Notes: generated by a model not told the origin, from the letters alone. A stretch of DNA of 64,000 nt from Candidatus Campbellbacteria bacterium (GCA_034521025.1 JAXHMZ010000001.1:15921-79920); one strand, 5' to 3'; shown: positions 10,915 through 57,958, numbered from the stretch's first letter. Program-made: numbers and translations.

Positions 10915-10997
10915 GCCGGAGTGGCGGAATTGGTAGACGCGCACGACTCAAAATCGTGTTCCTTCGGGAGTGGGAGTTCGATTCTCCCCTCCGGCAC
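10915..10997 (+). tRNA. tRNA-Leu(CAA), type II, no encoded CCA
   Basis: Hand fold: acceptor GCCGGAG/CTCCGGC, anticodon stem CACGA/TCGTG, loop CTCAAAA, long variable arm, T-loop TTCGATT. Confidence 0.8.
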
Positions 10998-11400
10998 TAC
11001 GAACAGAGTGAGTTGAGGCGGAGAGCGGGCAAACTGCTTTGCCCGTGTGAGAGAAGCGAAAGACGGAGTATATTGCGAGCGAAGCGGAGCAATTCGAGTC
11101 GGGGTCGCGAGGCTGCCGAAGGCAGAACTTGTGACCGATTCTCCCCTCCGGCACTACGAACAGAGTGAGTTGAGGCGGAGAGCGGGCAAACTGCTTTGCC
11201 CGTGTGAGAGAAGCGAAAGACGGAGTATATTGCGAGCGAAGCGGAGCAATTCGAGTCGGGGTCGCGAGGCTGCCGAAGGCAGAACTTGTGACCGATTCTC
11301 CCCTCCGGCACCAGAGCAAAGTGAGTTGAGGCGGAGAGCGGGCAAACTGCTTTGCCCGTGTGAGAGAAGCGAAAGACGGTGAGTTGAACCGGAATTGGGC
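10998..11400 (+). repeat. tRNA-3'-end-associated modular repeat array, about 2.7 units, period 150 bp; each unit ends in ...GACCGATTCTCCCCTCCGGCAC (tRNA-Leu 3' mimic)
   Basis: Unit cgattctcccctccggcactACGAACAGAGTGAGttgaggcggagagcgggcaaactgctttgcccgtgtgagagaagcgaaagacgg... is repeated at 10977, 11127 and 11277. Confidence 0.85.
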
Positions 11401-11442
11401 GCAAATAAATGCTTCAATCTATAGATTGAAGCATTTATTTGC
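11401..11442. repeat. Perfect 42-nt palindrome containing the core aaatgcttcaatctatagattgaagcattt (a second copy of the core is at 40381-40414)
   Basis: gcaaataaatgcttcaatcta|tagattgaagcatttatttgc. The 30-nt core is identical at both sites. Confidence 0.85.
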
Positions 11443-11474
11443 TACTATTTCTCGTATAAACATGCATTTAATTT

Positions 11475-12362
11475 ATGAAAGATAAGATTTTGGCTATCGT
11501 TGGACCTACGGCCGTAGGGAAAAGTAACTTGGCAGTGAACCTGGCTCTTGAATTTAATGGCGAAGTAATTTCCGCCGATTCTCGTCAGATCTACAAAGGA
11601 CTAGACATTGGAACCGGGAAGATAACCGAGGGAGAGAAAAAGGAAGTGACCCATTATATGATCGATATAGCCGACCCCAGAGAGCAATACACTGTAGCAG
11701 AGTGGAAAAATAACACCGAAAAGATCATATCCGAAGTTCTATCCAAGGACAGACTGCCGATCATTTGCGGAGGCACTGGTCAGTATATAGAAGCTATAGT
11801 AGATAATATTTCATATCCAAACGTCCCTCCTAACTACGAACTGCGAGATAAACTTCAAGATAAAAGTCCGGAAAAGCTTTTTGCAATACTAATGTCCAAA
11901 GACGAAGATCGCGCGAATACGATAGATAGAAATAACCCACGCCGAATTATACGCGCCATTGAAATAGCAGAATCTATTGGAAAAGTGCCGCCACTCGAAA
12001 GTGATCCTAAATACAATGCTCTTCAGATCGGTCTGTACCTGCCACGCGAGAAGCTGAAAAACCGTATAAAAAATAGATTGGAATCGCGCCTAGAGATAGG
12101 AATGGTCGAAGAAGCCAAAAAAATTCACAGCAATGGCATATCGTACAAACGAATGGATGAACTGGGATTAGAGTATCGCTACTTGGCAAAATACCTGCAA
12201 AACGAAATGACATACGAAGAAATGAAGGAGAAGCTAGAAACAGAAATATACCAATATTCAGTACGTCAACTACGTTGGTTCCGGCGCGATAATAGAATCA
12301 AGTGGTTCACTCCGGAAGAAAACGATCAAATCCAAGAGGAGGTGCGCAAATTTTTAACGTAA
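11475..12362 (+). CDS. miaA: tRNA dimethylallyltransferase
   Basis: P-loop GPTAVGKS. Overall MiaA-like (DSRQIYKGLDIGTGKIT). Confidence 0.85.
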   Translation: MKDKILAIVGPTAVGKSNLAVNLALEFNGEVISADSRQIYKGLDIGTGKITEGEKKEVTHYMIDIADPREQYTVAEWKNNTEKIISEVLSKDRLPIICGGTGQYIEAIVDNISYPNVPPNYELRDKLQDKSPEKLFAILMSKDEDRANTIDRNNPRRIIRAIEIAESIGKVPPLESDPKYNALQIGLYLPREKLKNRIKNRLESRLEIGMVEEAKKIHSNGISYKRMDELGLEYRYLAKYLQNEMTYEEMKEKLETEIYQYSVRQLRWFRRDNRIKWFTPEENDQIQEEVRKFLT

Positions 12363-12393
12363 AAAGCCCCGCGGTATATATACCGCGGGGCTA
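12363..12393. terminator. Bidirectional terminator between convergent genes
   Basis: aaaagccccgcggtatatataccgcggggct. Confidence 0.55.
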
Positions 12394-12435
12394 GAGGTTT
12401 CATCACCTCCTTATCAAAAAACTAAAGGAAGACGG

Positions 12436-14328
12436 TTAGTCACACAGTGTCCAGCCGTGTAAGTAGTCGAGTTTCCTATTGCCGTATCGCACCTCACCAT
12501 CAAAGTGATGGATAATGGTGTGTCCGACAAACAGGTCTGCCTGCCAACCGTGGTTATTGCCCTGTTGTTCAGACACATCACACGGTGGGTACCCGATGAT
12601 CGTCATCTCAGCCGGACCATTTTCGTCCGCTGGAGCAATCTCTCCGGTCCAGGAGGTTGAAGGCTCCTGATGATCGAGAGCACCAGACTGATCGTGCTTG
12701 TAGTAGATCGCCCAACCGAAGTTGTAGCAATCTTCTTCTGATGTGTTGGTGACAGTGAACTCAAGACTGCCATCGGGAAGCTCGGTGATAGTACCGGTGA
12801 GACCGGTAGCATCATCAGCACTCGTGGGATCAACGCATACTAGCGTCTCACCGTCTTTGCCATCCTGGCCATCTTCTCCGTCTTCGCCATCCTGACCGTC
12901 TTCACCGTCGGCTCCGTCGCAAACGTACCAAGTACCTGTTACTTCGGAGTTGTCGAGGATGCCGTTGCGGTTGTTGTCAAGACCAACTTCAACCCTAACA
13001 CCACCGTTTTCACAGTTCTCTCCCGAAGAAACGCTTGTAGTGTCGACGAGAGTAGTGAATCCATCTTCGCCGTCCTCGCCATCTTCTCCGTCTTCCGGGT
13101 AACCAATGAAAACTGTTTCGGTGACTTCAGACTCTTCGAGCGTATCGTTGCGATTGGAGTCGAGGCCAAAGTAGAGAGTTACACCCTCTTCTCCGAACTC
13201 AACGTCAACAAGTACGTTGTAACCGTCTTCGCCATCTTCACCGTCTTCGCCGTCCTGACCGTCTTCGCCATCGCTGGGACGGCAGAAGCGCACACTTTGC
13301 TCGACTTCGCTTTCTTCAAGCTCGCCGTTGCGGTTGGTGTCGAGACCGGTCTCGAAGAGTACGCCACCGTTGCGACAGATGTCGCCAGGATGGATCTCTA
13401 CGACGTCGACTAGACTATTGTATCCGTCTTCGCCGTCCTGACCGTCCTCACCATCTTCGCCATCTTCACCGTCTTCGCCGTCCCGACCGTCTTCACCGTC
13501 GACTCCGTCGCAAACGTAAGTAACATCAGTTACTTCGCTTTCGTCCAGAACCGTATCACGGTCAGTATCCAGGCCAACGCTTACTCGCGTACCTCCATTC
13601 GGACATTCTTGTGATTCTTCGATGGGCGTGGTGTCAATTAAAGCTGTATGCCCATCTTCACCGTCTTCGCCATCGGCACCATCTTCACCGTCTTCACCGT
13701 CTTCGGGGAACGGAATAAAGATGGTTTCTGTTACCTCCGAATCATCGAGCTCGCCGTTGCGGTTAGTGTCGAGACCAAGCTCTACTGTAACGCCATCTGA
13801 TTCAAAAATGACGTTAAACAGAACGCTGAGTCCGTCTTCGCCGTCCTCACCGTCGGCACCATCTCGACCGTCTCTGCCATCTTCACCGTCCTCGCCGTCG
13901 ACACCATCTCTGCCGTCTTCGCCATCCTCACCGTCTTCGCCATCCTCACCGTCGCGAGGGATAACCAGAACGTCTACGACACAGTGCGCTTGACTGTTAA
14001 GGTAGTTATACGTTTCGTATGTAAACGTATACGTACCATCGGGCAGACAATCGCCAGTCCAGCTGGAAACGCCGACAGCTCTTGCCTGCTCTGCTACTGT
14101 CACACGCGTCCGTGTGGTTCCGGGTGTGAGCTCGTAGGTAAGCTGTGAGCCATGGTCTTCGACCGGCTCAATTACGTTTCCGGATTCATCCAGAAGCGCA
14201 AGCTCGATCCCAGTGGCGCCGTCCGGCGCAGAATACTCTACTTCAAGAGTATTAACAGGCATCGGACGACTACAAGCCGCCAGCAGTAACGCTAGAAAGA
14301 CCGCTGAAAGTATGTAAAGCTTTTTCAC
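12436..14328 (-). CDS. Acidic surface lipoprotein with (Gly-Glu/Arg-Asp)n collagen-like triplet runs alternating with EF-hand-type Ca-binding loops
   Basis: Start set to GTG at 14328 after AGGGGAGG (MKKLYILSAVFLALLLAACS lipobox). Triplet run GEDGEDGEDGEDGRDGVDGEDGEDGRDGRDGADGEDGEDG. Five or more loops of the form DTNRNGELDDSE (D-x-N-x-N-G-x-L-D-x-x-E). Confidence 0.55.
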   Translation of the reverse strand: MKKLYILSAVFLALLLAACSRPMPVNTLEVEYSAPDGATGIELALLDESGNVIEPVEDHGSQLTYELTPGTTRTRVTVAEQARAVGVSSWTGDCLPDGTYTFTYETYNYLNSQAHCVVDVLVIPRDGEDGEDGEDGEDGRDGVDGEDGEDGRDGRDGADGEDGEDGLSVLFNVIFESDGVTVELGLDTNRNGELDDSEVTETIFIPFPEDGEDGEDGADGEDGEDGHTALIDTTPIEESQECPNGGTRVSVGLDTDRDTVLDESEVTDVTYVCDGVDGEDGRDGEDGEDGEDGEDGQDGEDGYNSLVDVVEIHPGDICRNGGVLFETGLDTNRNGELEESEVEQSVRFCRPSDGEDGQDGEDGEDGEDGYNVLVDVEFGEEGVTLYFGLDSNRNDTLEESEVTETVFIGYPEDGEDGEDGEDGFTTLVDTTSVSSGENCENGGVRVEVGLDNNRNGILDNSEVTGTWYVCDGADGEDGQDGEDGEDGQDGKDGETLVCVDPTSADDATGLTGTITELPDGSLEFTVTNTSEEDCYNFGWAIYYKHDQSGALDHQEPSTSWTGEIAPADENGPAEMTIIGYPPCDVSEQQGNNHGWQADLFVGHTIIHHFDGEVRYGNRKLDYLHGWTLCD

Positions 14329-14341
14329 TGGCCTCCCCTTT

Positions 14342-15529
14342 CTAGAAGTGGACATTTACACCAACGCCCAATTCGAGATCCGTCTCCCTGGGATCGGTGA
14401 TCGTATCGAATTGATTACTCAAACCGATCTCAGTAAAGGGACGGAAAACTTCGGTCGCTTCAAACTCCAAGCCGGCAAACATCACTCCCGCAAAACCGTT
14501 GCGAGGCTCGTCAAACGAGCCTTCCTGCGCACCGAACTGGTAGAACAATCCGCCACCTGCGTAGGGGTTGGCACTACCTGCCACATAGGGCCAGAACAGC
14601 ACATCAACTCCGACGCCAAACATCATGGCTTCTACTCCGCCGGCTCTGTTCAGAGACAAGTGACCGCGCACGCCAAGCCCTTCTTCGCTCGACGAAAGCA
14701 AGCCAGTATCTCCAACGTGAAGGTTTAGCGCAAGTGGAGAAATTCCGCCAACGGAAGCACCAACGTATGTGGTAGACGGACGATCAGGGGTGGTATACAC
14801 CACCTCCGTTACGCCATCTTCACCCGCTGGTCCACGTGGGCCTTCTGGTCCTTGTTCTCCAGTTTCGCCTTGCGGACCGGCAGGTCCTTGTGAACCTGCT
14901 TCACCGCGAGGACCGGGCTCGCCTTGCGAACCTTCCAGACCTTGTTCTCCACGGGGACCAATGTCACCTTGCTCGCCCGGCAGACCCATAGGGCCAGCCA
15001 GACCTTGTTCTCCGTCTTCGCCTTGCGGGCCCTGTGGTCCGACTTCGCCGCGAGGACCTCGGATATTACCAAGCTCTCGCATCTCACCGTCCGTGTACGT
15101 AATCGAGAGGTTGCCCTCTTCATCGAGGTAAACACTCTCTATTCCGCGTCCGGGCTCCCCTTCGGGGCCTTGCGGACCGGCGGGGCCTTGTGGGCCTGCT
15201 TCACCGCTTTCTCCCTCAGGACCCCGAGGACCTTGCGGGCCTTCGGTTTGTGGCAAGCATTCTGATTCCAGAATGCGAGCAATGACGACAAACGCCTCGT
15301 TACGCGTCAGGCTATCCCGACCGCGAATTGTAAACGTACCTTCGTCGCCGACAATGACGTTGCACTCAACCGCTCGGTTAAGCGCTTCGCGCGCCCAATC
15401 GACCACCGATTCCATATCGGTGAATACTTCGGGTGCTGGATGTGCCGCCCCGATAGGCGGCTCCGAATCTTGTGCCTGCGCAATAGGGATAACGAAGAGT
15501 AGGAAAAGCGCAAAACAAAACTTTTTCAC
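14342..15529 (-). CDS. SLH-domain protein with collagen-like Gly-X-Y repeats and a C-terminal domain ending in F
   Basis: GTG start after AGGAGAAG. Signal peptide. SLH-like segment [85 protein letters not shown] and further GLxGxxGxxG runs. C-terminus ...GVGVNVHF. Confidence 0.55.
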
Positions 15530-15656
15530 CGTCTTCTCCTTTCAAGAAATTTCTAGTTATAGGGCGAATATTTGTATGACTATTTCCTCCTTTCTGTAAA
15601 GAGCTTCAAAACAAAAAATACTAACAATTTAGGGTTTTGTCAATTTATGATCTGCT

Positions 15657-15849
15657 ATAATTGTTCGCTTTCTCGCTCCCTTCACTCACGCTGTTCGTTG
15701 CGGGTCCGAGCCGGGACTCGAATCTTACAGATTCGGTACAGATCTCGTATCGTGCTCGCAAAGCTGCGCGCGATTAACTCGATCTTTTCTCGTCCTGGCG
15801 AAAGCGAAATTGTTCGCTTTCTCGCTCCCTTCACTCACGCTGTTCGTTG
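15657..15849 (-). repeat. tRNA-3'-end-associated repeat: one 151-nt unit plus a partial second unit; the unit ends in GATTCGAGTCCCGGCTCGGACCCGCA (tRNA-Trp 3' mimic)
   Basis: aattgttcgctttctcgctcccttcactcacgctgttcgttgcgggtcc occurs at 15657 and 15808. The minus-strand left end is ACGAACAGCGTGAG. Confidence 0.8.
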
Positions 15850-15921
15850 CGGGTCCAGCAGGACTCGAACCTGCAGTCCTGGTTTTGGAGACCAGTGGTT
15901 TGCCAATTAACCGATAGACCC
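15850..15921 (-). tRNA. tRNA-Trp(CCA)
   Basis: Acceptor GGGTCTA/TGGACCC, anticodon stem CTGGT/ACCAG, loop CTCCAAA. Confidence 0.75.
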
Positions 15922-15985
15922 CTACCGACAAATAGTACACAAAAATTTTGAAAAACAAAATAAAAGCCACTCGTGGACAAGTAGC

Positions 15986-16151
15986 TTTTAGTAAACTATT
16001 TCTTAGACTCTTTGAAAAGCACGTGTTTTCGCACGTTAGGGTCGTATTTTTTTAGTTCGATCTTCCGAGTTACGAGCTTCTTATTCTTACGAGAATAGTA
16101 TACGTAGTCCGACTCGGTTGATTTTAGTTTGATTAATTGATCCTGTGACAT
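15986..16151 (-). CDS. rpmG: 50S ribosomal protein L33 (54 aa; below the ORF-track length cutoff)
   Basis: Own translation: MSQDQLIKLKSTESDYVYYSRKNKKLVTRKIELKKYDPNVRKHVLFKESKK. Confidence 0.7.
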
Positions 16152-16295
16152 AGTTTTAGATTTGAATATAACGCTAGGTACTATAATAAATCACTAAGAA
16201 TTAGTCAATGTAACGATATTGTGCTTTTTCCCAAACTTCACTCTCGTCAATATGCTAAACTGCATACATATCAAGCAGTCTTTAACTATTAAATT

Positions 16296-16967
16296 ATGGC
16301 GCTTTCAGACAAACAAATTTTAGAACAAAAAGAAAAAGGAGATATAGTGATCGAACCGTTTATAGAAGAAAATATTTCTACTTCAAGTTATGATGTAACG
16401 CTTGGAGAATATTTTTTCTTTGAAAAATCACCAGGCCGGTTCCAAAATATATATAACCCCTATGACGAAGCACACGTGGAGAAAATTTGGGGTAAAGAGC
16501 CGAGCCAAGCACAACCGGCAAAAGAAACATTCAAGCATTACAAATTCGAATTTGAGGGGATAGAGCCGGACGATAAGGTAATAGTGCTGGATCCGGGAGA
16601 AACTATATTAGCTCACACAAACGAATTTATCGGCGGTAAGAAACACATAACCACGATGATGAAGGCGCGATCCAGCTTGGGTCGTAATTTTATAGAAGTT
16701 TGTAAGTGCGCTGGCTGGGGAGACGTGGGATACGTGAATCGCTGGACCATGGAGATAACAAATAACTCCAAGTTTTACTCTATACCTCTAGTAGTCGGAA
16801 GAAGAGTCGCCCAGATCATATTTTTTGAAACCGGAGAAATACGCGGTGACGATTATACTAAAGACGGTAAGTATCAGTCTATAGGATTAGAAGGTCTAAA
16901 AGAAAACTGGGATCCTTCAATGATGATCCCCAAAATGTACAATGACAGAGAAGTAAAACAAAGATAG
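16296..16967 (+). CDS. dcd: dCTP deaminase family protein
   Basis: SSYDVTLG motif and dUTPase-like fold signatures. Confidence 0.7.
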   Translation: MALSDKQILEQKEKGDIVIEPFIEENISTSSYDVTLGEYFFFEKSPGRFQNIYNPYDEAHVEKIWGKEPSQAQPAKETFKHYKFEFEGIEPDDKVIVLDPGETILAHTNEFIGGKKHITTMMKARSSLGRNFIEVCKCAGWGDVGYVNRWTMEITNNSKFYSIPLVVGRRVAQIIFFETGEIRGDDYTKDGKYQSIGLEGLKENWDPSMMIPKMYNDREVKQR

Positions 16968-16969
16968 CT

Positions 16970-17120
16970 ATTCGAATTCTGACACGAGCAAAGCAGTTTG
17001 TTTTGGGATTCTCTCCTTACAGGAGCTGTACACCTTTCGTATCGTACTCACTTTGTTCCGTGCGATATACTCAAGGTTTTCGAATCCTGCCCGAAAGCTT
17101 CGCTTTCTCGGCCACAAAAT
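16970..17120 (-). repeat. tRNA-associated repeat module in permuted/inverted arrangement downstream of tRNA-Tyr
   Basis: Minus-strand reading contains cggGAACAAAGTGAG, CTGTACAGCTCCTGTAAGGAG, CAAACTGCTTTGC and GAGTATATCGCAC. Also an inverted copy of the tRNA-Tyr T-arm region (cgggcaggattcgaa). Confidence 0.6.
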
Positions 17121-17151
17121 AAAAACCCCAACAAATGGGGTTTTTATTTTG
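17121..17151 (-). terminator. Rho-independent terminator immediately 3' of tRNA-Tyr
   Basis: Minus-strand aaaaccccatttgttggggttttt followed by a T-run. Confidence 0.65.
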
Positions 17152-17236
17152 TGCGCCGGGCAGGATTCGAACCTGCGTAGCCCATAGGGCGACAGATTTA
17201 CAGTCTGTTGCGATTGACCACTCCGCCACCGACGCA
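17152..17236 (-). tRNA. tRNA-Tyr(GTA), type II
   Basis: Acceptor GCGTCGG/CCGGCGC (with one G-T pair), loop CTGTAAA, long variable arm CGCCCTATGGGCTAC. Confidence 0.75.
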
Positions 17237-17323
17237 TTTTCTGGACCGCGTAATCAATATAATTACGAGCTCCAGAAAAATATATCACAGAGTCACCGCT
17301 TTTCAAAGTTAGAGTTTTTGAAA

Positions 17324-25591: not shown

Positions 25592-25674
25592 GCCCGGGTG
25601 GCGGAATAGGTAGACGCGCGAGACTTAAAATTTCGTAACCTTTGGTTGTGCGGGTTCGATTCCCGCCCCGGGCA
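25592..25674 (+). tRNA. tRNA-Leu(TAA), type II
   Basis: Acceptor GCCCGGG/CCCGGGC, loop CTTAAAA, long variable arm. Confidence 0.8.
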
Positions 25675-26100
25675 CAACGAACAAAGTGAGTTGGTAGAAA
25701 GCTCATTTCTGAGCTTTCGTGCGGGAATCGAAAAGGTTCTCCCATATCCCTCACCAGTTTTCTGGTGGGGGATGGGAAACCTGCACAGATCCTGTAAGGT
25801 TGAGCTGCGAGCGAGCGCAGCAACGAAAAACCTTTTGAGATATTTTGTGAGATACCGAAACAAAATATCCAAAAGGTGTACTGATCTCGTGAATCGATTC
25901 GCCCCGGGCACTAATAAAACCAATGGAAGTAGCAAGCAAACAGTTTGCTTCGGTGAACGAAATCGAAAAGGTTGAGTAGTCGGACGGAACGAAGTGATAC
26001 GACACGATACCGATTGTAGTTCAGATTCCCGCCCCGAGCACAAGAGAGTGAAGCGAGCGTAATGCTCGGGAGCATGCAAACTGCTTTGTGTGCGATGAAG
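25675..26100 (+). repeat. tRNA-3'-end-associated repeat array (units about 240, 127 and one partial), with mimics GATTCGCCCCGGGCAC and CAGATTCCCGCCCCGAGCAC
   Basis: Begins caACGAACAAAGTGAG. Contains the CGAAAAGG and CAAACTGCTTTG motifs. Confidence 0.75.
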
Positions 26101-26237
26101 AATCAAAAAATTGATTCTTGCAAAAAGTGTTTTTTCAACGTAGAATGTTTTTCGTCTATTTTTGGAAAAGCAATCTAGCAACCTGCGATAGGAAAATTTG
26201 ATTCAAGATCCTGAGGTTATACAATAGCTAGAGTGTA

Positions 26238-26438
26238 GATATTAGACCCGCCCATAGCTCAGTTGGATAAAACAGAAACTGCTTTCTGTTTTATCCGGTT
26301 CCGCGTAAGCGGAAACTTCCGTTGTTGAGCGTAGCGAAACAGGAAGTAGGAGGAAGAGTTTACTCTAACAACTGAGCATTTCGGGGACAGTACATAAGCA
26401 CTGGTACCATCGCGTGGTATAGTGGTACAAATAATTAA
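26238..26438 (+). repeat. Duplicated 5' fragment of tRNA-Lys (ccgcccatagctcagttgg) followed by an insert of about 180 nt, directly upstream of the intact tRNA-Lys
   Basis: The first 19 nt of tRNA-Lys are repeated at 26238. The insert begins with the hairpin ggataaaacagaaactgctttctgttttatcc. Confidence 0.7.
26416..26423 (+). promoter_or_regulatory. Extended -10-like box TGGTATAGT upstream of tRNA-Lys (the same motif lies upstream of tRNA-Arg)
   Basis: gtggtatagtggta is shared by the Lys and Arg tRNA upstream regions. TGcTATACT is found upstream of tRNA-Val at 48503-48511. Confidence 0.35.
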
Positions 26439-26511
26439 CCGCCCATAGCTCAGTTGGTAGAGCAGTTGCCTTTTAAGCAAACGGTCCTAGGTTCGAATCC
26501 TAGTGGGCGGA
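26439..26511 (+). tRNA. tRNA-Lys(TTT)
   Basis: Acceptor CCGCCCA/TGGGCGG, loop CTTTTAA, T-loop TTCGAAT. Confidence 0.8.
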
Positions 26512-26960
26512 CACGAAAGAAGTGAGGGGACGACCAAGCAAACAAATAGTTTTGTTTGCGTCTAGGATGAGAAGAGGTCGAATATATCGCGCGCAGTACA
26601 GCGAGCACGATTTGAGACCTGTACCGAATCCGTAAGATTCGAATCCTGAGTCGGGCGGACACGAAAGAAGTGAGGGGACGACCAAGCAAACAAATAGTTT
26701 TGTTTGCGTCTAGGATGAGAAAAGGCTCAAATGGTCCGGGGGACTGTTTGAGAAGGTTGCCAGATAGTTTGAGAGCTTGCGAACCAAACTATCGACAACC
26801 TGTACAGCTCCTGTAAGGAGGAATTAATCGGGCGCAGCTTGGCGAGCACGATTTGAGACCTGTACCGAATCTGTAAGATTCGAATCCTGAGTCGGGCGGA
26901 CACGAACAAAGTGAGAGGACGACCAAGCAAGCAAATAGTTTTGTTTGTTTTAGTGTGGAT
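26512..26960 (+). repeat. tRNA-3'-end-associated repeat array: unit 1 about 147 nt; unit 2 is the same plus a nested ~105-nt module; then a partial unit 3. Units end in GATTCGAATCCTGAGTCGGGCGGA
   Basis: cACGAAAGAAGTGAGGGGACGACCAAGCAAACAAATAGTTTTGTTTGC is repeated at 26512, 26659 and 26899. The nested module at 26727-26832 is about 95% identical to 48697-48802. Confidence 0.85.
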
Positions 26961-28405: not shown

Positions 28406-28487
28406 GCCGGGGTGGCGAAATTGGTAGACGCGCCAGTCTTAGGAACTGGTGGAGCAATCCATGGAGGTTCGAGTCCTCTCCCCGGCA
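28406..28487 (+). tRNA. tRNA-Leu(TAG), type II
   Basis: Acceptor GCCGGGG/CCCCGGC, anticodon stem CCAGT/ACTGG, loop CTTAGGA. Confidence 0.8.
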
Positions 28488-28975
28488 CACGAACAAAGTG
28501 AGTGTGACGGGGAAGCAGGCAAACTGCTTTGCCTGCGTGAGAGGACTCGAGAATGAGCATATCGCAGCGGAGCTTGTGACACATACGAGATCTGTACAGG
28601 TTCTGTAAGAACCGAGTCCTCTCCCCGGCACACGAACAAAGTGAGTGTGACGGGGAAGCAGGTAAACTGCTTTACCTGTGCGAGGACGAGAAAAGGCTGA
28701 GTTTATCGCAACGAGTCCGCAGGACGAAGTGTCAGTCTGTACCGAACCGAAGTCGACTCCCCGGCACAGGTTGAGCGCAGCGAAAGCTGGGCCGGGAGAA
28801 AGACAATTTCTTGTCTTGCGTGAGAGGGCTCGAAAAGATCGAGTATATCGAGCGCAACTCTGTGAGCACGATACGAGATCTGTACAGGTTCAGTAAGAAC
28901 CGAGTCCTCTCCCCGGCACAAGTGAGTCCGCGAACGCAGTGACGGGAGCAGGTAAACTGTTTTGCCTGCGTGATT
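28488..28975 (+). repeat. tRNA-3'-end-associated repeat array (3 units plus a partial); units end in CCGAGTCCTCTCCCCGGCAC or GTCGACTCCCCGGCAC
   Basis: cACGAACAAAGTGAGTGTGACGGGGAAGCAGG[CT]AAACTGCTTT[GA]CCTG occurs at 28488 and 28632. Mimics at about 28612-28631, 28753-28768 and 28899-28918. Confidence 0.85.
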
Positions 28976-29079
28976 TGTTGTATCTCTTTTTATATTTGAC
29001 AAAAAGTGTTTTTATAGTATAATCTCAAGCAGAACTAACTTACGTTTCTTGACATAACTCAACACGAAAGGAGTTAAAA

Positions 29080-34514: not shown

Positions 34515-35045
34515 TTATTTCTTAATGAATATAAGACCATAATGGTGCGCGCCCGCGCTAATTTCTTTTTCAAACTTAAAACCTACCTCTGTAGCAATAT
34601 TCTTTACTTCCTCAGCCGAAACAACATTTTCTGGCGGTGGTCCCATCCCCCTAAAAGATTCACTCCAGTCTATCACCAACAACCGACCTTCCGGCTTTAA
34701 TATGCGAAATGCTTCTTTTAAAAAAGCGGGTCTGTCGTCAGTCTGGAAAAGGACATTTGATGCTACTGCTGAATCGAGCGAGCTATCATCTAGCTCAATT
34801 CCCTTTTCACGCTCTATGTCAGCTACTAACGGAGCTATATTGGTATATCCTTCTTTTGTCGCGCGTGTTGATAATTCCTTAAGAATATCCTTTTGTATAT
34901 CAACAGCATAAACTGCGCCGGGCAAACCGACTGCTTCGGCTAATACAAATGTATGCGCCCCGGAACCTGCTCCCAGATCAGCTACCTCGTCACCTTCTTT
35001 CGGACCTAGTTGCTGAATATTGTACTCAGGATCTGAAAAATACAT
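34515..35045 (-). CDS. Class I SAM-dependent methyltransferase
   Basis: Motif I VADLGAGSGAHT. Acidic post-I DIQ. Confidence 0.7.
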   Translation of the reverse strand: MYFSDPEYNIQQLGPKEGDEVADLGAGSGAHTFVLAEAVGLPGAVYAVDIQKDILKELSTRATKEGYTNIAPLVADIEREKGIELDDSSLDSAVASNVLFQTDDRPAFLKEAFRILKPEGRLLVIDWSESFRGMGPPPENVVSAEEVKNIATEVGFKFEKEISAGAHHYGLIFIKK

Positions 35046-38130: not shown

Positions 38131-38775
38131 TTATACTTGAGATGAAAGTACAACGATATCTCCCTCTCTCTCATCTAGTTCTTTCTTTTTGATAGTGAGT
38201 TTGTCTTGCGGCTTTTCTCCTGTTTCTCCTTCCTCACTAACAAATGACTTTAGAGTGTCTTTGTCATAGAGCATAGGGATAATAATACTCGCTTCAAATT
38301 TCAAGGAAAGTTTGTACGCCTCATTTGGAGAAAGCGCTCCACTGCCTCCTACTGGAATAAAAAGAATGTCGGGGTCTCCCAAGCCCTCTCTTACTTCCGA
38401 ACTTATTTCCCCTTCGGATAATGCACCTAAGAAGACCAAGTTCATATCTTCAAGAGTTATGGAATACACGGTATTGTTTGCTTTTTTACCTCCATACTCC
38501 GTCGGAGTTAAATATCCCTTGGCGAAAATTCCCTGTACTTCATACTCGCCAGGACCGGAAATAACAAATGGATCCTTTCCTTTAAGCGAAGCATTTTCCC
38601 GGCCATCCATATCCGGATGAAAGTTTGAGATAAAGCAGATGTCTGAACCAAATTTTGATTGTTTTAGTTCTGACTTTTTAGAAATAGGATTGAGCGCGAG
38701 CGTCACATCCCCAAACTGCACCTTGAAATACGAGGCTCCATAATACGATATTACCATTACCTCATTATATCGCAT
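38131..38775 (-). CDS. MBL-fold metallo-hydrolase-like protein
   Basis: Beta-lactamase-like fold pattern (ICFISNFHPDMDG...DILFIPVGG). Confidence 0.45.
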   Translation of the reverse strand: MRYNEVMVISYYGASYFKVQFGDVTLALNPISKKSELKQSKFGSDICFISNFHPDMDGRENASLKGKDPFVISGPGEYEVQGIFAKGYLTPTEYGGKKANNTVYSITLEDMNLVFLGALSEGEISSEVREGLGDPDILFIPVGGSGALSPNEAYKLSLKFEASIIIPMLYDKDTLKSFVSEEGETGEKPQDKLTIKKKELDEREGDIVVLSSQV

Positions 38776-47449: not shown

Positions 47450-47624
47450 TGCTATGACCCCACGGAGAATCGAATCTTACAGATTCGGTAGAGTCTTCGT
47501 GTCGTACTCGCTACACTCCGTGCGACTAACTCAGACTTTTCGATTCACCGATCTGAGCCAAATTATTGGCTCATTTGTGGTATGAACAAAAAAGGACTGC
47601 TCAAGCAGTCTCTTTTTGTATTCA
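47450..47624 (-). repeat. tRNA-3'-end-associated repeat unit downstream of tRNA-Glu, ending in CTACCGAATCTGTAAGATTCGATTCTCCGTGGGGTCA (Glu 3' mimic)
   Basis: Minus-strand reading: hairpin gactgcttgagcagtc, CGAAAAGTCTGAGTTAGTCGCACGG, then the conserved right arm plus an exact copy of the tRNA-Glu 3' end. Confidence 0.75.
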
Positions 47625-47698
47625 TGACCCCACGGAGAATCGAACTCCGATTACCAGGATGAAAACCTGGCGTCCTAGCCGTTAGACGATGGGGCCTT
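47625..47698 (-). tRNA. tRNA-Glu(TTC)
   Basis: Acceptor GGCCCCA/TGGGGTC, anticodon stem CCAGG/CCTGG, loop TTTTCAT. Confidence 0.75.
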
Positions 47699-47788: not shown

Positions 47789-47872
47789 GGTGGATTGCCC
47801 GGAATTGGTAACGGAGCGGTTTCGAAAACCGTCGGCCTAACGGCCTTACAGGTTCGAGTCCTGTATCCACCG
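47789..47872 (+). tRNA. tRNA-Ser(CGA), type II
   Basis: Acceptor GGTGGAT/ATCCACC, loop TTCGAAA, long variable arm GGCCTAACGGCCTTAC. Followed by cagtGAACAAGTGAG. Confidence 0.7.
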
Positions 47873-47994
47873 CAGTGAACAAGTTCCTTTTTATACACGC
47901 ACGAAGATTTGAACAAGTGAGTAAGATATGCTCTCCTTTTAGTAGGTAGGGTTTCGTTCCTTTAAACTCATACACTCACGAAAGGTAGGTTCTA

Positions 47995-48522: not shown

Positions 48523-48596
48523 GGGCGATTAGCTCAGTTGGCTAGAGCGCATCATTGACGTTGATGAGGCCATAGGTTCGAGTCCTATATCGCCCA
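48523..48596 (+). tRNA. tRNA-Val(GAC)
   Basis: Acceptor GGGCGAT/ATCGCCC, anticodon stem CATCA/TGATG, loop TTGACGT. -10-like TGcTATACT lies 12 nt upstream. Confidence 0.75.
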
Positions 48597-48880
48597 CCGT
48601 ACAGTTCAAGATGGCACAACGATGTGTCTTTATACAAAAGTTCCTATAGTGCAAGAGCAAGCCAACTGCTTGGCTTGCGTGTTAGGACTCGAAAAGCTCA
48701 AACAGTCCGGGGGACTGTTTGAGAAGGTTGCCAGATAGTTTGAGAGCTTGCGAATCAAACTGTCGACAACCTGTACAGCTCCTGTAAGGAGGGAGTATAT
48801 CGCGCGAAGCAGAGCGAGCACGACGCGAAGACTGTACCGAATCTGTAAGATTCGAGTCCTATATCGCCCACCTAGACAAA
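48597..48880 (+). repeat. tRNA-3'-end-associated repeat unit carrying the nested ~105-nt module; ends in CTGTACCGAATCTGTAAGATTCGAGTCCTATATCGCCCACC (Val 3' mimic)
   Basis: The module at 48697-48802 matches 26727-26832. Terminal 24 nt are identical to the tRNA-Val 3' end. Confidence 0.8.
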
Positions 48881-48905
48881 AATCACTGCTTAGATATTTA
48901 GTTTA

Positions 48906-51379: not shown

Positions 51380-51385
51380 AAAGCT

Positions 51386-52546: not shown

Positions 52547-52603
52547 AACAATTCTCCGGCTTAGCGAGGCAAACCGGAGAATTTTTGAGAAGGCGTGATT
52601 TTT

Positions 52604-52767
52604 CACAGCATGAGTATAATGATCACGATTATCATGACCAATAAGATTGGCTGTGAAACTAAAAATTGGAGAAGATTGACAAGAACGTTTACTATCGCCG
52701 CCAATGCTCCAATGGCCGCAAAAAACAACACAAAAGTTAAAACAGCAAAAGCTATGATGATTTCCAT
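52604..52767 (-). CDS. Small hydrophobic membrane peptide (54 aa)
   Basis: Own translation: MEIIIAFAVLTFVLFFAAIGALAAIVNVLVNLLQFLVSQPILLVMIIVIIILML. RBS GAGGAGG 6 nt upstream. Preferred over the antisense ORF 52595-52804. Confidence 0.4.
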
Positions 52768-52879
52768 CGCCTACCTCCTCATTAGTTTATACCCAACAAA
52801 TTAAGTGTTTGCAATAATAAAAAACCAGATCATATAAAACCATTTAATAAAGCCCTGTTTTTTGCTAAGATAACTCTAT

Positions 52880-55036: not shown

Positions 55037-55045
55037 TCACGCCTA

Positions 55046-55744
55046 ATGGATACAAACACTATTTTAACTGCTCTTTTGTTTGGATTAGTACCAACTTTTA
55101 TTTGGCTTGTTTTTTGGCTTAGTGAAGACAGGGCGCATCCTGAGCCAAAAAGAATGATCTTTCTTTCTTTTATTGCCGGCATGATCGCGGTACCAATATC
55201 AATTACGATCGAAGCCTGGATCGATTCCTTGGTCAGTGACGGTTTTAGCAAAACTTTACTCTGGTCTCTAACTGAAGAAATGGCGAAATATCTATTGGCT
55301 TTTATAATAGTACTGCGCTCTATTGAATTGGATGAGGCCTTAGACGCTCTTATATATATGATCTGTGTTGCCCTGGGGTTTGCCGCACTAGAAAATACTC
55401 TGTACGCTCTTGAACCTATTCTCGATCAAGAACATATTGGCGCAGCTACGGTTTCTAATCTACGTTTTGTGGGAGCAACGTTATTACACACCGTTTCATC
55501 TGCCGCCATAGGAGTGGCTATGGCGCTTTCCTATTACCGCTCTCGCGCGAGTCGTATGGGCGCAACCGTTATCGGACTCATCGTTGCGATCGGTTTGCAT
55601 GCACTCTTTAATTTTTTTATAATTAACCTATCGGAAAATACTGTATTTATGGTTTTCGCAGGTATTTGGATCCTTACTATCGGACTCATAGTAATAGCCG
55701 AAAAAATCAAAAAGATAGATGCGGGATACTCGATTTTTAAATAA
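55046..55744 (+). CDS. PrsW-family intramembrane metalloprotease-like protein
   Basis: Polytopic. EExxK (LTEEMAKYL), FAALEN and HALFNF motifs. Confidence 0.55.
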   Translation: MDTNTILTALLFGLVPTFIWLVFWLSEDRAHPEPKRMIFLSFIAGMIAVPISITIEAWIDSLVSDGFSKTLLWSLTEEMAKYLLAFIIVLRSIELDEALDALIYMICVALGFAALENTLYALEPILDQEHIGAATVSNLRFVGATLLHTVSSAAIGVAMALSYYRSRASRMGATVIGLIVAIGLHALFNFFIINLSENTVFMVFAGIWILTIGLIVIAEKIKKIDAGYSIFK

Positions 55745-55760
55745 ACCACTAACTAAAATT

Positions 55761-56294
55761 ATGCGAAAAGAAAAAAGATCGTTTTTTGAAAGACTTACAG
55801 GCGCCATCAATATGGACGAGGAAGATGAGTACGAATTCGATGAAGAATTCGAAGATGAGGAATATTCGCGTCCCGAGAGACGCTCGTTCAGTCAAGATGA
55901 TCCAATGAACATAAGAGAGAATAGAGCTGCGGCAGCCTTTTCACCGGGTGAACTTTCGGAGGGTCAACTATCAGTGGACGTTTTGCAAACACCTGACGAC
56001 ATCATAATCAAGACCATCGTAGCCGGAGTAGCTCCAGAAGATCTGGATATTTCAATAACTCGCGACTCGGTCACAATCAAAGGTAGTCGAGAGGAAGATT
56101 TTTCGGTAAACGATAATGATTATTTTCATCGCGAAGTTTCTTGGGGTAACTTTTCAAGGACTATTTCTCTGCCAGCTGAAATAGAAGTAGAAGAAGCAGA
56201 TGCTCAAGAAAAACACGGCGTACTAATTATTCGGCTACCAAAAATAGACAAGGGGCGAGAAACCAAACTTTCTGTTCGCTCAGCGGGTAATTAA
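55761..56294 (+). CDS. Hsp20/alpha-crystallin small heat-shock protein
   Basis: ACD pattern (VDVLQTPDDIIIKTIVAGV...GVLIIRLPK). Start moved to the internal ATG. Confidence 0.75.
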   Translation: MRKEKRSFFERLTGAINMDEEDEYEFDEEFEDEEYSRPERRSFSQDDPMNIRENRAAAAFSPGELSEGQLSVDVLQTPDDIIIKTIVAGVAPEDLDISITRDSVTIKGSREEDFSVNDNDYFHREVSWGNFSRTISLPAEIEVEEADAQEKHGVLIIRLPKIDKGRETKLSVRSAGN

Positions 56295-56332
56295 TTCGTC
56301 TAAACGGAAGAAACGAAAATACCCACAAATAC

Positions 56333-56370
56333 ATTCCTCCTTTTACGTTATACTGTAAAAGGAGGTTTTA
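56333..56370 (+). terminator. Terminator after hsp20 (11-bp perfect stem)
   Basis: cctccttttac-gttatac-tgtaaaaggagg, then ttttat. Confidence 0.6.
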
Positions 56371-56632
56371 TGTACTTTAAAAGAATTTTCCATTAAAAAG
56401 AAAGAGGTCAAAAGTTAACTATAGGGACTTCTGTCCCCTTCGCAATTACAGAAAATTACCGTCGTCGTAAACCACATCGCTATCAATCACCTCGGCTTCT
56501 ATCGAACTCCTGGACAAACACAAGAGCGACTTGAGAGACAACAAATACACCTTTATACACATTAAGACAGCCACGTGGGCTGCCTTTAAATGTTTTTGCT
56601 TAATAAAAATTCCAAAACTGTTTGTATAAATT

Positions 56633-56785
56633 TTTGTGTGCCCCGTCTAGGACTCGAATTTTACAGATTCGGTACAGGTCTCAAATCGTGCTCGTTTCAC
56701 TCCGCTCGATATACTCAACCTTTTCTCGTCCTCAAGCAGGCAAAATAGTTTGCCTGCTTCCCTGTCCCCACTTACTGCGTTCGTG
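56633..56785 (-). repeat. tRNA-3'-end-associated repeat unit downstream of tRNA-Phe; its terminal mimic GATTCGAGTCCTAGACGGGGCAC does not match the adjacent Phe tRNA
   Basis: Minus-strand: ACGAACGCAGTAAGTGGGG...GCAAACTATTTTGC...GACGAGAAAAGGTTGAGTATATCGAGCGG...GAGCACGATTTGAGACCTGTACCGAATCTGTAAAATTCGAGTCC. Confidence 0.75.
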
Positions 56786-56857
56786 TGCCAGGTCGGACTC
56801 GAACCGCCGACCCTTCGCTCTTCAGACAAATGCTCTAGCCAACTGAGCTACCTGGGC
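56786..56857 (-). tRNA. tRNA-Phe(GAA)-like; possible pseudogene (3-nt insertion in the T-stem, 1-nt deficit in the acceptor 3' strand)
   Basis: Good D-arm (TAGCTCAGTTGGCTAGAGC) and anticodon arm (loop CTGAAGA). However GTCGG[CGG]TTCGAGTCCGAC, and acceptor GCCCAGG against CCTGG-C. Confidence 0.5.
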
Positions 56858-57718
56858 GTATTTTAATTTTGCAGGTTTTCTTCGTTACCACCGTCAGAAT
56901 TTACACCATCATCATTCTCCGTGCCTTCTTCTGAACCGTCAAAATTATCGAGGAAATCACCAACGGCTCCGCTTGCGCCTGAATTTACTTCTTCATTATT
57001 CTCAAACGTTTCTTGAGCACTTTCAAAGAAGGCTTGCATTCTGCAATATACGGCTGAGACAAATAATAGAGAAGTATAAATAATCCTATAACCACCAACC
57101 AGCGCACCACTCTCATGAGCGTTGCCATGCGTTGCGCGCGCTGCATCTTTTTTAGCATCCGATGGTTTTCCTCGGTCGACGCGCAGTTTTTACCAATAAT
57201 TCTTCTAGTTCATCAGGCTCCACGTTCAAAAGTATAGCTTAAAAAAAGCCAAAAGTGAAGAGTTTTCTTTCAAACTTCTTGCTTGTTTACACTAACTTTA
57301 CTTCTTACCATTAGTGACTCAAACTCTCAGCATACACACTTGACATATATAACTATCAATGTTATACTCGCAATAGTTTAGAATCGCTTTGGTTCTAAAT
57401 ACGTACACTTACAAAAGATGTTGAAAGGAAGGGATGGTATTATGGATTTCATCGCGACGCATTGGTACGTATCTGGGCCGGATTGCTCATTCTCAGCTTT
57501 GGCTACGTGGCTGTCCACAGAATTTTCGTATTTACGCCACCTATGCCAAGACTGTCGAAGGAGCAGTTGGATAGAGAGTACCTGAAGGACTTTTTAGCGA
57601 TGCTTGTTGTACTCGTGAGTATCGTTTTGATACTCATCCGATTCAACCACTTGGCCTAACTCGACATCGATTCATAAGCTCCGGCAGATAGATATATTTT
57701 CTGCATGGGGCTTTTTCT

Positions 57719-57887
57719 TTGCTTCGCTCAGCTTGTGCCCGGCAGGAAACTCTCCTTACAGGAACGGTACAGGTTTCATATCGTGCTCGCTTCGCTTCGC
57801 GCGATATATTCAACCTTTTCGATTCCCGCCCGCTAGCAAAGAAATTTGCTCACTCGCGGTCACAGCTTTTCGCTTCGCTCAGCTTGT
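57719..57887 (-). repeat. tRNA-3'-end-associated repeat unit downstream of tRNA-Arg; ends in CCTGTAAGGAGAGTTTCCTGCCGGGCAC plus a partial next unit
   Basis: Minus-strand: cACAAGCTGAGCG...GAATCGAAAAGGTTGAATATATCGCGCG...GAGCACGATATGAAACCTGTACCGTTCCTGTAAGGAG. Confidence 0.75.
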
Positions 57888-57958
57888 GCCCCCGGCAGGA
57901 ATCGAACCTGCATTTAGACGTTAGGAGTGTCTTGTTCTATCCATTGAACTACGAGGGC
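57888..57958 (-). tRNA. tRNA-Arg(CCT)
   Basis: Acceptor GCCCTCG/CGGGGGC, loop CTCCTAA, T-loop TTCGATT. Upstream gtggtatagtggtaac. Confidence 0.7.

Follow-up and report, generated by a model that had tools for sequence, protein, structure and literature searches.

The question raised by a 64-kb stretch of a Candidatus Campbellbacteria genome (the window, one strand of 64,000 nucleotides, from whose first letter all coordinates are counted) is what the repeated sequences behind its tRNA genes are. Twelve tRNA genes lie in the window, on which ARAGORN and Rfam agree, and a first-pass annotation had described repeat units at the 3' end of ten of them. This was borne out: behind each of the ten stand one to three units, oriented like the tRNA. 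Searching the window with a covariance model of the unit gave 13 matches, all 13 on the tRNA strand: two each at Leu-TAA, Lys and Leu-TAG, one each at Leu-CAA, Trp, Tyr, Glu, Val, Phe and Arg, and none away from tRNA loci. The left motif matched 13 times (0.5 expected), the core motif four times (0 expected) and the right arm six times (0 expected), and self-BLAST matches of the tRNA flanks were confined to tRNA-adjacent intervals. Also as first described, CCA is not encoded, tRNA-Cys is clean and tRNA-Ser (47789-47873) has only an isolated GAACAAGTGAG fragment 38 nt past its end (47911..47921, plus strand), with no unit and no covariance model match. Two details required correction. The tandem period, given as 150-151 bp at Leu-CAA and Trp, measures 157 bp in the TRF analysis of Leu-CAA and 149 bp at Trp, and the left motif, placed 1-3 nt after the discriminator at all ten loci, is found there directly as ACGAACAAAGTGAG at only about six. 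A terminator-like hairpin comes first at Tyr and Glu, Val has a spacer of about 40 nt, and Arg carries the variant AAGCTGAGCGAAGCGAAA in place of ACGAACAAAGTGAG. Recurrence of the unit in more than 40 independent assemblies means that the arrays, whose copy numbers are given here as assembled, cannot be artefacts of assembly alone.

On the plus strand, tRNA-Leu(CAA) (10915..10997) is followed by an array at 10998..11390 (TRF period 157, 2.6 copies, 98% identity) of two full units (10998-11154 and 11155-11311), both closed by CGATTCTCCCCTCCGGCAC, and a partial third (11312-11390); the covariance model match spans 11162-11319 and a terminator-like hairpin follows the array at 11401-11442. The array of tRNA-Leu(TAA) (25592..25675) occupies 25676..26105 and comprises divergent units at 25676-25911 and 25912-26042 (46.6 and 28.2 bits) and a partial one. 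That of tRNA-Lys(TTT) (26439..26512), at 26513..26955 (121 and 58 bits), consists of unit 1 (26513-26660), a composite unit 2 (26661-26901) with an additional variant core at 26726-26822, and a partial unit 3 (26902-26955). Behind tRNA-Leu(TAG) (28406..28488), the array at 28489..28972 (72.9 and 117.5 bits) holds units at 28489-28631, 28632-28767 and 28768-28919 and a partial unit at 28920-28972, after which a consensus promoter of the next gene is found at 28996-29023. tRNA-Val(GAC) (48523..48598) precedes a composite unit at about 48640..48872 (63.2 bits), with an additional variant core at 48697-48793.

The minus-strand loci begin with tRNA-Trp(CCA) (15849..15921), whose repeat locus (15661..15848; 124 bits) contains a full unit at 15700-15848 and a partial second at 15661-15699; the T-stem part of its terminal copy is 2 nt longer than in the tRNA. 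At tRNA-Tyr(GTA) (17151..17235) the terminator-like hairpin (~17116-17148) separates the gene from a unit at 16968..17115 (108.8 bits) with partly reshuffled modules, and at tRNA-Glu(TTC) (47625..47696) a hairpin of this kind (47595-47610) precedes a unit at 47454..47594 (109.5 bits). The tRNA-Phe(GAA) gene (56785..56857; Rfam 39 bits) has imperfect acceptor and T stems and is followed by a unit at 56637..56784 (118.4 bits). The locus of tRNA-Arg(CCT) (57886..57958), at 57713..57885, consists of a unit at 57737-57885, which has the top covariance model score in the window (134.3 bits), and the start of a second.

Units are about 130-160 nt long, lie in the 3' trailer on the tRNA strand and are made up of six successive parts. 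First comes a short spacer, purine-rich or hairpin, and then two arms complementary to the neighbouring tRNA with a variable hairpin between them; the first arm complements tRNA positions 74-66 (acceptor 3' strand and discriminator), the second positions 65-54 (3' strand of the T stem, and T-loop). The highly conserved core comes next, composed of helix P2 (AGGTT/AACCT), a tandem G-A loop, helix P3 with a GCGNAGC cap, the GTAC junction and hairpin P4, whose loop is N-GUA-R, and the unit is closed by a repeat of the tRNA segment running from T-loop through discriminator. That each unit ends in such a copy holds at eight loci; the Tyr unit has none, the end of the Phe unit is foreign, and a search for exact terminal tRNA-end copies found none at either. 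Exact identity to the neighbouring tRNA, claimed for Val, Glu and Leu, extends over 22 nt at Val, 21 nt at Glu and 19-25 nt at Leu-CAA, and over 12-13 nt at Leu-TAA. The copies at Leu-TAG are 25, 12 and 20 nt long, and those at Trp, Lys and Arg 12-14 nt. The Phe copy does come from a different tRNA and units do move between tRNA loci, the left arm of the Phe unit being a paralogue of the Leu-TAG units.

The two antisense arms, absent from the earlier description, together form the reverse complement of the last ~21 nt of the neighbouring tRNA, and could pair either with that tRNA or with the unit's own terminal copy. In the best units the cognate Watson-Crick matches are in register at 9/9 and 7/7 positions, and the anti-T arm of the Tyr unit, GGGCAGGATTCGAA, matches tRNA-Tyr at 7/7. 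Mean matches were 6.1, against 4.0 and 3.9 for non-cognate tRNAs, and cognate pairs are nearly all Watson-Crick with very few G:U. The anti-acceptor arms of the window are near chance (mean 5.1/8, 4.5 by chance). In many loci of Saccharibacteria the acceptor part of the terminal copy has degenerated to chance level, and the anti-acceptor arm still matches the tRNA at 8/8. The complementarity runs on into the genomic trailer and not into CCA, and in many loci tRNA end, terminator and anti-arm make up one long perfect inverted repeat.

Aligned units share a conserved three-way junction whose 39 pairs are 89% paired, compared with 29-42% in slid controls, with a covariation score of 0.447 (at most 0.11 in slid controls). 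The covariation reported for the right-arm hairpin was confirmed, pairs 145:157, 146:156 and 147:155 changing on both sides in 12-16 of 31 sequences. The closing helix P1 is 77% paired, with 6 of 9 pairs changed on both sides, and the unit ends re-create an acceptor/T-arm helix. Folded in isolation, units adopt the predicted structure, with z-scores of -5 to -7. For 37 of 57 units the sense strand gives the more stable fold, and G:U exceeds A:C by 53 to 23, which favours the tRNA-sense strand as the folded one. For full read-through transcripts, however, the fold of lowest predicted energy has the arms paired to the 3' strand of the tRNA itself, which would disrupt the tRNA.

A pattern search with the unit, which biases the set of loci sampled, yielded about 40 more loci, mostly 0-40 nt 3' of a tRNA. 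All genome loci that score with the covariance model are from Patescibacteria/CPR genomes or metagenomes, and three non-CPR pattern matches gave no model score. Running the model beyond the window, a check suggested earlier, placed 49 of 57 units overall downstream of a same-strand tRNA; orphan units with no tRNA nearby occur at L027, L035, L010 and L045. The core is almost invariant across CPR classes. For the same tRNA type a unit is present in some lineages and absent in others, and the window and its relatives L002 and L009 agree both in the tRNAs that carry units and in the tRNA that lacks them, the arms following changes in the tRNA. Within one genome, cores from different tRNA loci share 87-96% identity, compared with a background of 71%, so that units evolve in concert. 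About 26 of 39 tRNA-to-unit spacers are 0-38 nt long without a terminator, and 13 contain terminator-like hairpins; the 3' flanks of arrays hold terminators or the promoter of the next gene.

The first-pass annotation recognised no described family. The CPR motif set is indeed absent from Rfam, but the architecture is that of the E. coli TLRs of RtT type (PMC8144298). As defined there, after Egan & Landy 1978 and Rudd 1999, TLRs lie in tRNA or rRNA operons immediately 3' of the gene in 1-5 tandem copies, have a 3' end of 18-19 bp identical to that of the upstream gene, and form part of the operon transcript, in which the repeated end is the site of processing (PMC8144298). In the window, 13 of 13 units follow a same-strand tRNA, loci carry 1 to 3.x units, and terminal copies are exact over 19-25 nt at four loci and 12-14 nt at four, with that of Tyr absent and that of Phe foreign. 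The E. coli tyrT and lysT operons show the same succession of tRNA, sometimes a terminator, unit and tRNA-end copy (18-21 nt), with units of 130-180 nt that are often tandem (period of 178 bp in tyrT), and lysQ and lysV have the order tRNA, terminator, unit, copy, terminator. RtT (rttR, RF00391; tyrT and lysT/valU operons) likewise lies on the same strand immediately 3' of the tRNA, and its closing stem, formed by the tRNA copy and an upstream anti-T arm and followed by GAGAA, has its equivalent in CPR helix P1. Both groups contain the purine-rich motif GAGCGNAGCGA and the 16-mer GTTGAGCGNAGCGAAA, the latter occurring three times in window units (0 expected).

The two groups also differ. The three-way-junction core of CPR units is a different one and far more conserved, and a second, anti-acceptor arm is set off by a hairpin. 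CPR units also stand at most tRNA species (10 of 12 in the window, compared with 22 TLRs at 10 loci in E. coli) and are spread over several CPR classes. RF00391 scores 47-137 bits on E. coli TLRs but gave no match in the window at its gathering threshold (45 bits) and none at E<=10 on unit-rich stretches, and the CPR covariance model did not detect RtT. The covariance models thus lend no support to common descent of the two groups.

We consider it probable that the units are the CPR/Patescibacteria counterpart of E. coli TLRs of RtT type, that is, co-transcribed trailer RNAs, cut at tRNA-like ends and amplified by recombination. The small-RNA system linked to tRNAs that had been proposed as one of two options is the better supported, given strand-specific covariation, the roughly two thirds of loci that are free of terminators and the acceptor/T-arm helix at the ends. 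We infer that transcription starting at the tRNA promoter would extend into the unit, either running on or reading through a terminator, and that the arms would pair with the unit's own terminal tRNA copy, closing the three-way junction. As this re-creates an acceptor/T-arm-like helix, the enzymes that cut tRNA 3' ends would release the unit as a discrete small RNA, which may have a cellular role. The ~20-nt direct repeats at tRNA end and unit end could drive unequal recombination, yielding tandem arrays, partial units and losses, and core homology flanked by T-loop sequence could allow gene conversion, which would homogenise units within a genome and occasionally shift them between tRNA loci. 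Release of an adjacent small RNA from a shared transcript, at a tRNA or tRNA-like end that acts as processing signal, occurs in plant dicistronic tRNA-snoRNA genes and MALAT1 mascRNA, although these are eukaryotic, lack anti-tRNA arms and are not repeated at many tRNAs. The precedent for this mechanism is provided by the TLR-derived rrA/rrB/rrF sRNAs found 3' of 5S rRNA in E. coli rrnA/B/D. The rrnB TLR has the order gene, T1, unit, 18-nt copy of the gene 3' end, T2. RrB arises by read-through, with its end 3 nt past the repeated sequence (PMC8144298). These sRNAs differ in their linkage to 5S rRNA and in binding Hfq and CsrA via GGA motifs; no antisense arm was seen by eye in the rrB sequence, and an RF00391 search of rrA/rrB/rrF-type TLRs gave no match. 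Several observations count against trailer RNAs: a strong terminator-like hairpin separates tRNA and unit in one third of loci, the read-through fold pairs the arms with the tRNA, and the closing helix also includes the discriminator, which a real tRNA leaves unpaired. The 8/8 anti-acceptor arm beside a decayed copy would likewise be unexpected if the unit's own end were its sole partner.

Integrative-element derivatives, the other option first proposed, have no direct support. Such non-autonomous elements or relics would sit at the T-loop-to-3'-end segment of tRNA genes and carry a replacement tRNA end, with an integrase, HUH transposase or reverse transcriptase encoded elsewhere and a fold serving mobility, possibly as ssDNA. 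The direct repeats of 12-25 nt that flank units resemble att sites or target-site duplications, yet neither model predicts an inverted, hairpin-split complement of the target, and the arms are locus-specific rather than common terminal repeats. Mobility would account for tandem arrays, truncated copies, reshuffled modules, orphan units, the arms and end of the Phe unit taken from other tRNAs, and the greater similarity of units within than between genomes. Presence at one tRNA type also differs among lineages, but L002 and L009 keep and lack units at the same tRNAs as the window, with arms tracking tRNA changes. A check for mobility enzymes found integrase, transposase or reverse transcriptase in 0 of 40 window ORFs, in which a Pfam scan detected housekeeping genes only; units, too small for any coding, had no match among 2.9 M viral contigs, 50,697 phage records and 72,556 plasmids. 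We regard a mobile origin as unlikely. Att remnants of prophages and ICEs do share duplicated tRNA 3' segments starting in the T-loop past an intact tRNA, and fragment arrays, but this class was rejected because the ~150-nt non-coding units have a conserved folded core and tRNA-specific antisense arms and no integrase or cargo among the window ORFs. A MITE or IS-derived transposon was also rejected, since there are no shared terminal inverted repeats, the arms match the local tRNA and the repeats consist of 12-25 nt of tRNA sequence, not of a short target-site duplication. The GCGNAGC caps belong to a classic type of stable DNA mini-hairpin, which would suit a mobile element and equally units acting as structured DNA, a quasi-palindrome or cruciform that would function at the ends of tRNA genes in replication, recombination or termination. 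Template-switch correction would then keep the arms perfect, in agreement with the long perfect inverted repeats of many loci and the scarcity of G:U in cognate arm pairs. This is highly improbable: the G:U over A:C asymmetry and the covarying, branched, non-palindromic core point to a single-stranded fold of one strand, most simply a transcript, and in E. coli the analogues are transcripts that undergo processing (PMC8144298).

The arms may instead be directed at the tRNA itself. As a cis-encoded, tRNA-specific guide-like RNA, a unit would pair its split arms with an uninterrupted stretch of 21 nt in the 3' third of the pre-tRNA and the trailer, and its three-way junction would recruit a protein or act itself, with an effect on how its own tRNA folds, matures at the 3' end, passes quality control or is modified; alternatively, read-through transcripts could be cleared through the long duplex as an RNase III substrate. 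Perfect complementarity of the arms to their cognate tRNA, seen also beside decayed acceptor copies, would fit a guide, as would the co-variation of arms and tRNAs at orthologous loci, although DNA-level template switching also keeps perfect inverted repeats without RNA selection, and the window anti-acceptor arms are near chance (5.1/8 against 4.5). The complementarity extends into the genomic trailer and not CCA, which makes the primary transcript the likely partner. The tRNA-arm duplex predicted for read-through transcripts agrees with this, but such pairing would compete with tRNA folding, and the near-chance arms and the non-cognate Phe unit indicate that tRNA pairing is not maintained in the window. 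Near-invariance of the core across CPR classes would be expected of a protein-binding or catalytic scaffold; no partner protein was identified, and Rfam searches found no known guide-RNA boxes or ribozyme cores, no family other than tRNA (self-cleaving ribozymes, riboswitches, T-box and Y RNA/YrlA included) matching at the gathering threshold and only noise appearing at E<=10. We find it doubtful that one guide-like RNA per tRNA gene clamps the precursor 3' third, with a scaffold that recruits or is a maturing, proof-reading or regulating activity. If true, tRNA biogenesis in Patescibacteria would have an RNA-guided layer peculiar to these bacteria, which could explain what E. coli TLRs are vestiges of. 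In H/ACA RNAs, guide, hairpin and guide pair with one continuous target strand, leaving the target U and one further nucleotide unpaired, and an ACA/H box and a K-turn or K-loop are present. The likeness is one of analogy only and an H/ACA-type guide was rejected, as the CPR arms pair with contiguous tRNA positions (74-66/65-54) with no gap or unpaired target nucleotide and there is no conserved ACA or H box. The retroviral primer-binding site, again an analogy only, is likewise the complement of a tRNA 3' end up to the T-loop, but follows the mature CCA end, whereas CPR complementarity follows the genomic trailer.

ARAGORN and Rfam identify the same 12 tRNA genes in the window, and ten of these (Leu-CAA, Trp, Tyr, Leu-TAA, Lys, Leu-TAG, Glu, Val, Phe and Arg) are followed on the tRNA strand by repeat units, folded modules that are usually closed by a copy of a tRNA end. 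The first-pass annotation had described this distribution, with a unit fragment after tRNA-Ser and none after tRNA-Cys, and it was confirmed by reading the loci, by a BLAST search of the full window with the tRNA flanks, which placed related sequence beside tRNAs only, and by a covariance model built from 31 units, whose 13 matches in the window all lie beside a tRNA. The motifs it named are also real, with 13 matches in the window for the left motif (0.5 expected), four for the core (0 expected) and six for the right arm (0 expected). Exact copies of the tRNA end are present at Leu-CAA, Leu-TAG, Glu and Val (19–25 nt) and at Trp, Lys, Arg and Leu-TAA (12–14 nt), so the earlier statement that units end in such a copy holds at most loci, the exceptions being the Tyr unit, which has none, and the Phe unit, whose copy is foreign. 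As previously proposed, the latter belongs to a different tRNA, here placed outside the window, and this unit has a left arm paralogous to the Leu-TAG units. Units had also been thought to begin directly behind the discriminator, which does not apply at Tyr, Glu and Val, where a terminator-like hairpin or spacer precedes the unit, and the units repeat every 157 bp at Leu-CAA and every 149 bp at Trp rather than every 150–151 bp.

The tRNA-Phe gene itself (56785–56857, minus strand) is mispaired at two positions of the acceptor stem and at one of the T stem and scores only 39 bits in Rfam. The defect looks like the loss of one nucleotide from CCTGG(G)CA and reflects either an error of assembly or damage associated with the adjoining non-cognate unit. 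A 5' fragment of tRNA-Lys (ccgcccatagctcagttgga) is present at 26248–26268 (plus strand), about 190 nt upstream of the real tRNA-Lys, indicating that tRNA 5' ends too are duplicated in that region. It is followed by a hairpin and then, at 26324–26339, by GTTGAGCGTAGCGAAA, a motif of the type found in the tRNA-linked repeats (TLRs) of E. coli.

The units are widespread in bacteria of the candidate phyla radiation (CPR, Patescibacteria). Among GTDB species representatives the right-arm pattern was found in 21 stretches, 18 of them from Patescibacteria (Saccharibacteria, Parcubacteria/Paceibacterota, Kaiserbacteria and Taylorbacteria), and it was present in 24 metagenome contigs and in zero viral contigs. 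In 17 of the 18 CPR loci the match lies 100–300 nt downstream of a same-strand tRNA, the identity of which varies (Arg, Glu, Ser, Ala, Tyr, Ile, Leu, Cys, His, Gln, Gly and others); the comparison locus L010 has no tRNA close upstream. The covariance-model search beyond the window that had been proposed returned 51 matches in the comparison loci, mostly 3' of tRNAs, and no match in the three non-CPR loci, so that their hits to the right-arm pattern are attributed to chance. A same-strand tRNA is present within 700 nt upstream of 49 of the 57 units; several of the remaining eight are truncated at the end of a contig and four or five are genuine orphans, with units lacking a detectable upstream tRNA at L027:19–160, L035:12155–12303, L010:549–694 and L045:1402–1549. 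The L027 orphan directly follows a protein gene, and its arms and terminal copy still match one another. At L003 a run within a tandem array of Ser units is N-masked (3790–3920), which suggests that these repeats cause assembly or masking trouble in public metagenome-assembled genomes (MAGs).

Upstream of the core, each unit contains the reverse complement of the last ~21 nt of the neighbouring tRNA, a feature missed in the first-pass annotation. The variable hairpin splits this complement exactly between tRNA positions 66 and 65, giving an anti-acceptor arm (complementary to positions 74–66) and an anti-T arm (complementary to 65–54). Scored in the register of the covariance-model alignment, the register-free version being too noisy, the best units show 9/9 and 7/7 Watson-Crick matches with their own tRNA, and the two arms average 6.1 and 6.1 matches with cognate tRNAs compared with 4.0 and 3.9 with non-cognate tRNAs. 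The complement extends into the genomic trailer or terminator and not into CCA, indicating that the partner of the arms is the gene or primary transcript rather than the mature tRNA. Many Saccharibacteria loci have a perfect anti-acceptor arm, with the acceptor copy of the unit itself eroded to chance level; in the window the terminal copies are exact and the anti-acceptor arms are near chance (5.1/8 versus 4.5). In read-through transcripts the arms are predicted to pair with the tRNA's own 3' strand, and where a full distal copy exists the predicted fold completes the tRNA with that copy.

The fold, derived from the alignment with RNAalifold followed by explicit pair counting, comprises the variable hairpin; helix P1, in which the anti-T arm pairs with the terminal T-loop/T-stem copy; helix P2 (AGGTT/AACCT, with the covarying alternatives GATC/GATC and GGTC/GACC); a tandem G-A loop; P3, which ends in a GCGNAGC-type hairpin cap or in longer insertions; the junction sequence GTAC; and P4, a hairpin of 5–6 bp whose loop is N-GUA-R. 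Helices P1, P2 and P4 meet in a three-way junction. The covariation reported earlier for hairpin stems was upheld, with 89% paired cells overall (29–42% with slid partners), a covariation score of 0.447 (at most 0.11 in slid controls) and changes on both sides in 26 of 39 pairs, figures that are inflated by the relatedness of the sequences, which the slid controls retain. Isolated units gave the predicted fold with z-scores of -5 to -7. G:U pairs outnumber A:C pairs (53 versus 23; binomial p = 0.0008, uncorrected for relatedness) and the sense strand is the better folder in 37 of the 57 units, indicating that the folded molecule is the tRNA-sense strand, most simply as RNA.

A variant second core is nested, in nearly identical form, in Lys unit 2 (26726–26822, plus strand) and in the Val unit (48697–48793, plus strand), and consists of a CTCAAA..TTTGAG hairpin, GGTTG/CAACC, GATAGTTTG/CAAACTATC, TGTAC and AGCTC-CTGTAAG-GAGG; related subtypes are present in comparison locus L021 (2801–2960 and 3512–3645). 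GCGNAGC, an exceptionally stable DNA mini-hairpin, recurs as caps or loops (GCGAAGC, GCGTAGC, GCGCAGC) in linkers and trailer loops, including 57868–57883 and 28770–28785 of the window and loci L046 and L048, and is common to CPR units and E. coli TLRs.

TLRs have been known in E. coli since 1978. They number 22 copies at ten loci, with one to five per locus, have no known function and are identical over their last 18–19 bp to the end of the upstream tRNA or rRNA; the rrnA/B/D members are produced by terminator read-through and processed beside the repeated end (PMC8144298). Downstream of tyrT/tyrV lie 178-bp tandem repeats, each closed by the tRNA-Tyr end AAUCCUUCCCCCACCACCA, and in the Rfam model of this type (RtT, RF00391) the closing stem pairs an anti-T arm (GGGGAAGGAU) with the tRNA-Tyr copy, followed by GAGAAG; the resulting GGAU-GAGAAG junction is present in several CPR units. 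RtT also matches downstream of tRNA-Lys, in spacers of the lysT and valU operons, where tRNA, terminator, unit, 18-nt tRNA copy and terminator follow in an order shared with L009, L015 and the Saccharibacteria loci. At lysQ/lysV (L048, the lysT operon, and L051, the valU operon) the TLR is followed by a second copy of the whole segment that comprises the tRNA 3' end and the terminator, a layout matching that of CPR loci L009 and L015. The repeat regions of the window contain three copies of the E. coli 16-mer GTTGAGCGNAGCGAAA, where none is expected, and GAGCGNAGCGA recurs in both CPR units and TLRs. The architecture of the CPR units is that of the E. coli TLRs in a much more elaborate form, whether or not the two share ancestry. 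Reciprocal covariance-model tests of CPR units and RtT gave no significant match in either direction, and the CPR units are accordingly classed as the same kind as TLRs and not as members of RF00391.

The earlier view that no described family fits thus stands for Rfam, where searches at the gathering threshold and at E<=10 (with the window, a 3.5-kb unit-rich stretch and a canonical unit) returned only tRNAs and noise, but not for architecture, which matches the TLRs. No description of such units in CPR bacteria was found in the literature. Inspection by eye rejected a hammerhead (the GAAAA/GUAC junction resembles part of the core, but there is no CUGAUGA and the nucleotide at the cleavage position is G), a group I intron (the helix order does not fit), a K-turn (the tandem G-A loop lacks a 3-nt bulge), and group II intron and T-box readings. 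A retroviral-type primer-binding site does not fit a complement that follows the genomic trailer and not CCA, and the likeness of the P4 loop CUGUAAG to the tRNA-Tyr anticodon loop or a TGT substrate was discounted, as U33 is not conserved.

The units are probably co-transcribed trailer modules released by tRNA-end processing, with repeat-driven arrays and core-driven homogenisation, which favours the processed small RNA among the two readings first offered. A unit would be transcribed with its tRNA, its arms would pair with the terminal tRNA copy, closing the three-way junction and re-creating an acceptor/T-arm-like helix, and tRNA-end processing enzymes would then release it; direct repeats would expand and contract the arrays, and core homology would homogenise the units. 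Cores at different tRNAs of one genome are 87–96% identical (71% background) and have neutral variants and linker insertions in common (L036, L002/L009, L015/16/19), a likeness indicating gene conversion or recent spread, and L006 carries a deletion derivative of a unit present in L033. Between the window and related genomes (L002/L009), units are kept at Trp, Tyr and Leu-TAA, with none at Cys, and the arms track tRNA differences.

The other reading first offered, a derivative of an integrative element, or more generally a mobilised selfish element, is unlikely: a check for mobility genes found no integrase, transposase or reverse transcriptase among the 40 ORFs of the window, and viral-contig, phage and plasmid collections contain no unit match. 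A guide-like RNA acting on its own pre-tRNA would agree with arms that remain perfect where their self-partner has decayed, and is slightly less probable again. A purely DNA-level palindrome, set beside the G:U excess and better sense folding, is very improbable.

The presence of a TLR-like architecture in a distant radiation with reduced genomes shows that the phenomenon is not peculiar to enterobacteria. In the window it is present at most tRNA genes, with a core that is strongly conserved and covaries and with antisense arms specific to the tRNA, and the dozens of divergent examples make the old question of TLR function testable by comparison. The CPR units constitute an unannotated non-coding RNA family outside Rfam, possibly a CPR-wide RNA or RNP tied to tRNA biogenesis, and in CPR MAGs they are likely to cause broken assemblies and wrong copy numbers close to tRNA genes.

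Two proteins of the window were noted solely because RNA methylation and RNase Z-like activities would bear on tRNA-linked RNAs: a small SAM methyltransferase with a weak fibrillarin-family match (34515–35045, minus strand; E = 6e-7) and a metallo-beta-lactamase-fold protein (38131–38775, minus strand; Lactamase_B_3), both of generic fold. The window also encodes three collagen-triple-helix-repeat proteins (12436–14355, 14342–15529 and 2223–3917, all on the minus strand), one with four DUF7151 domains, and TRF detected in-frame short tandem repeats in the collagen-repeat region at 12848–13954.
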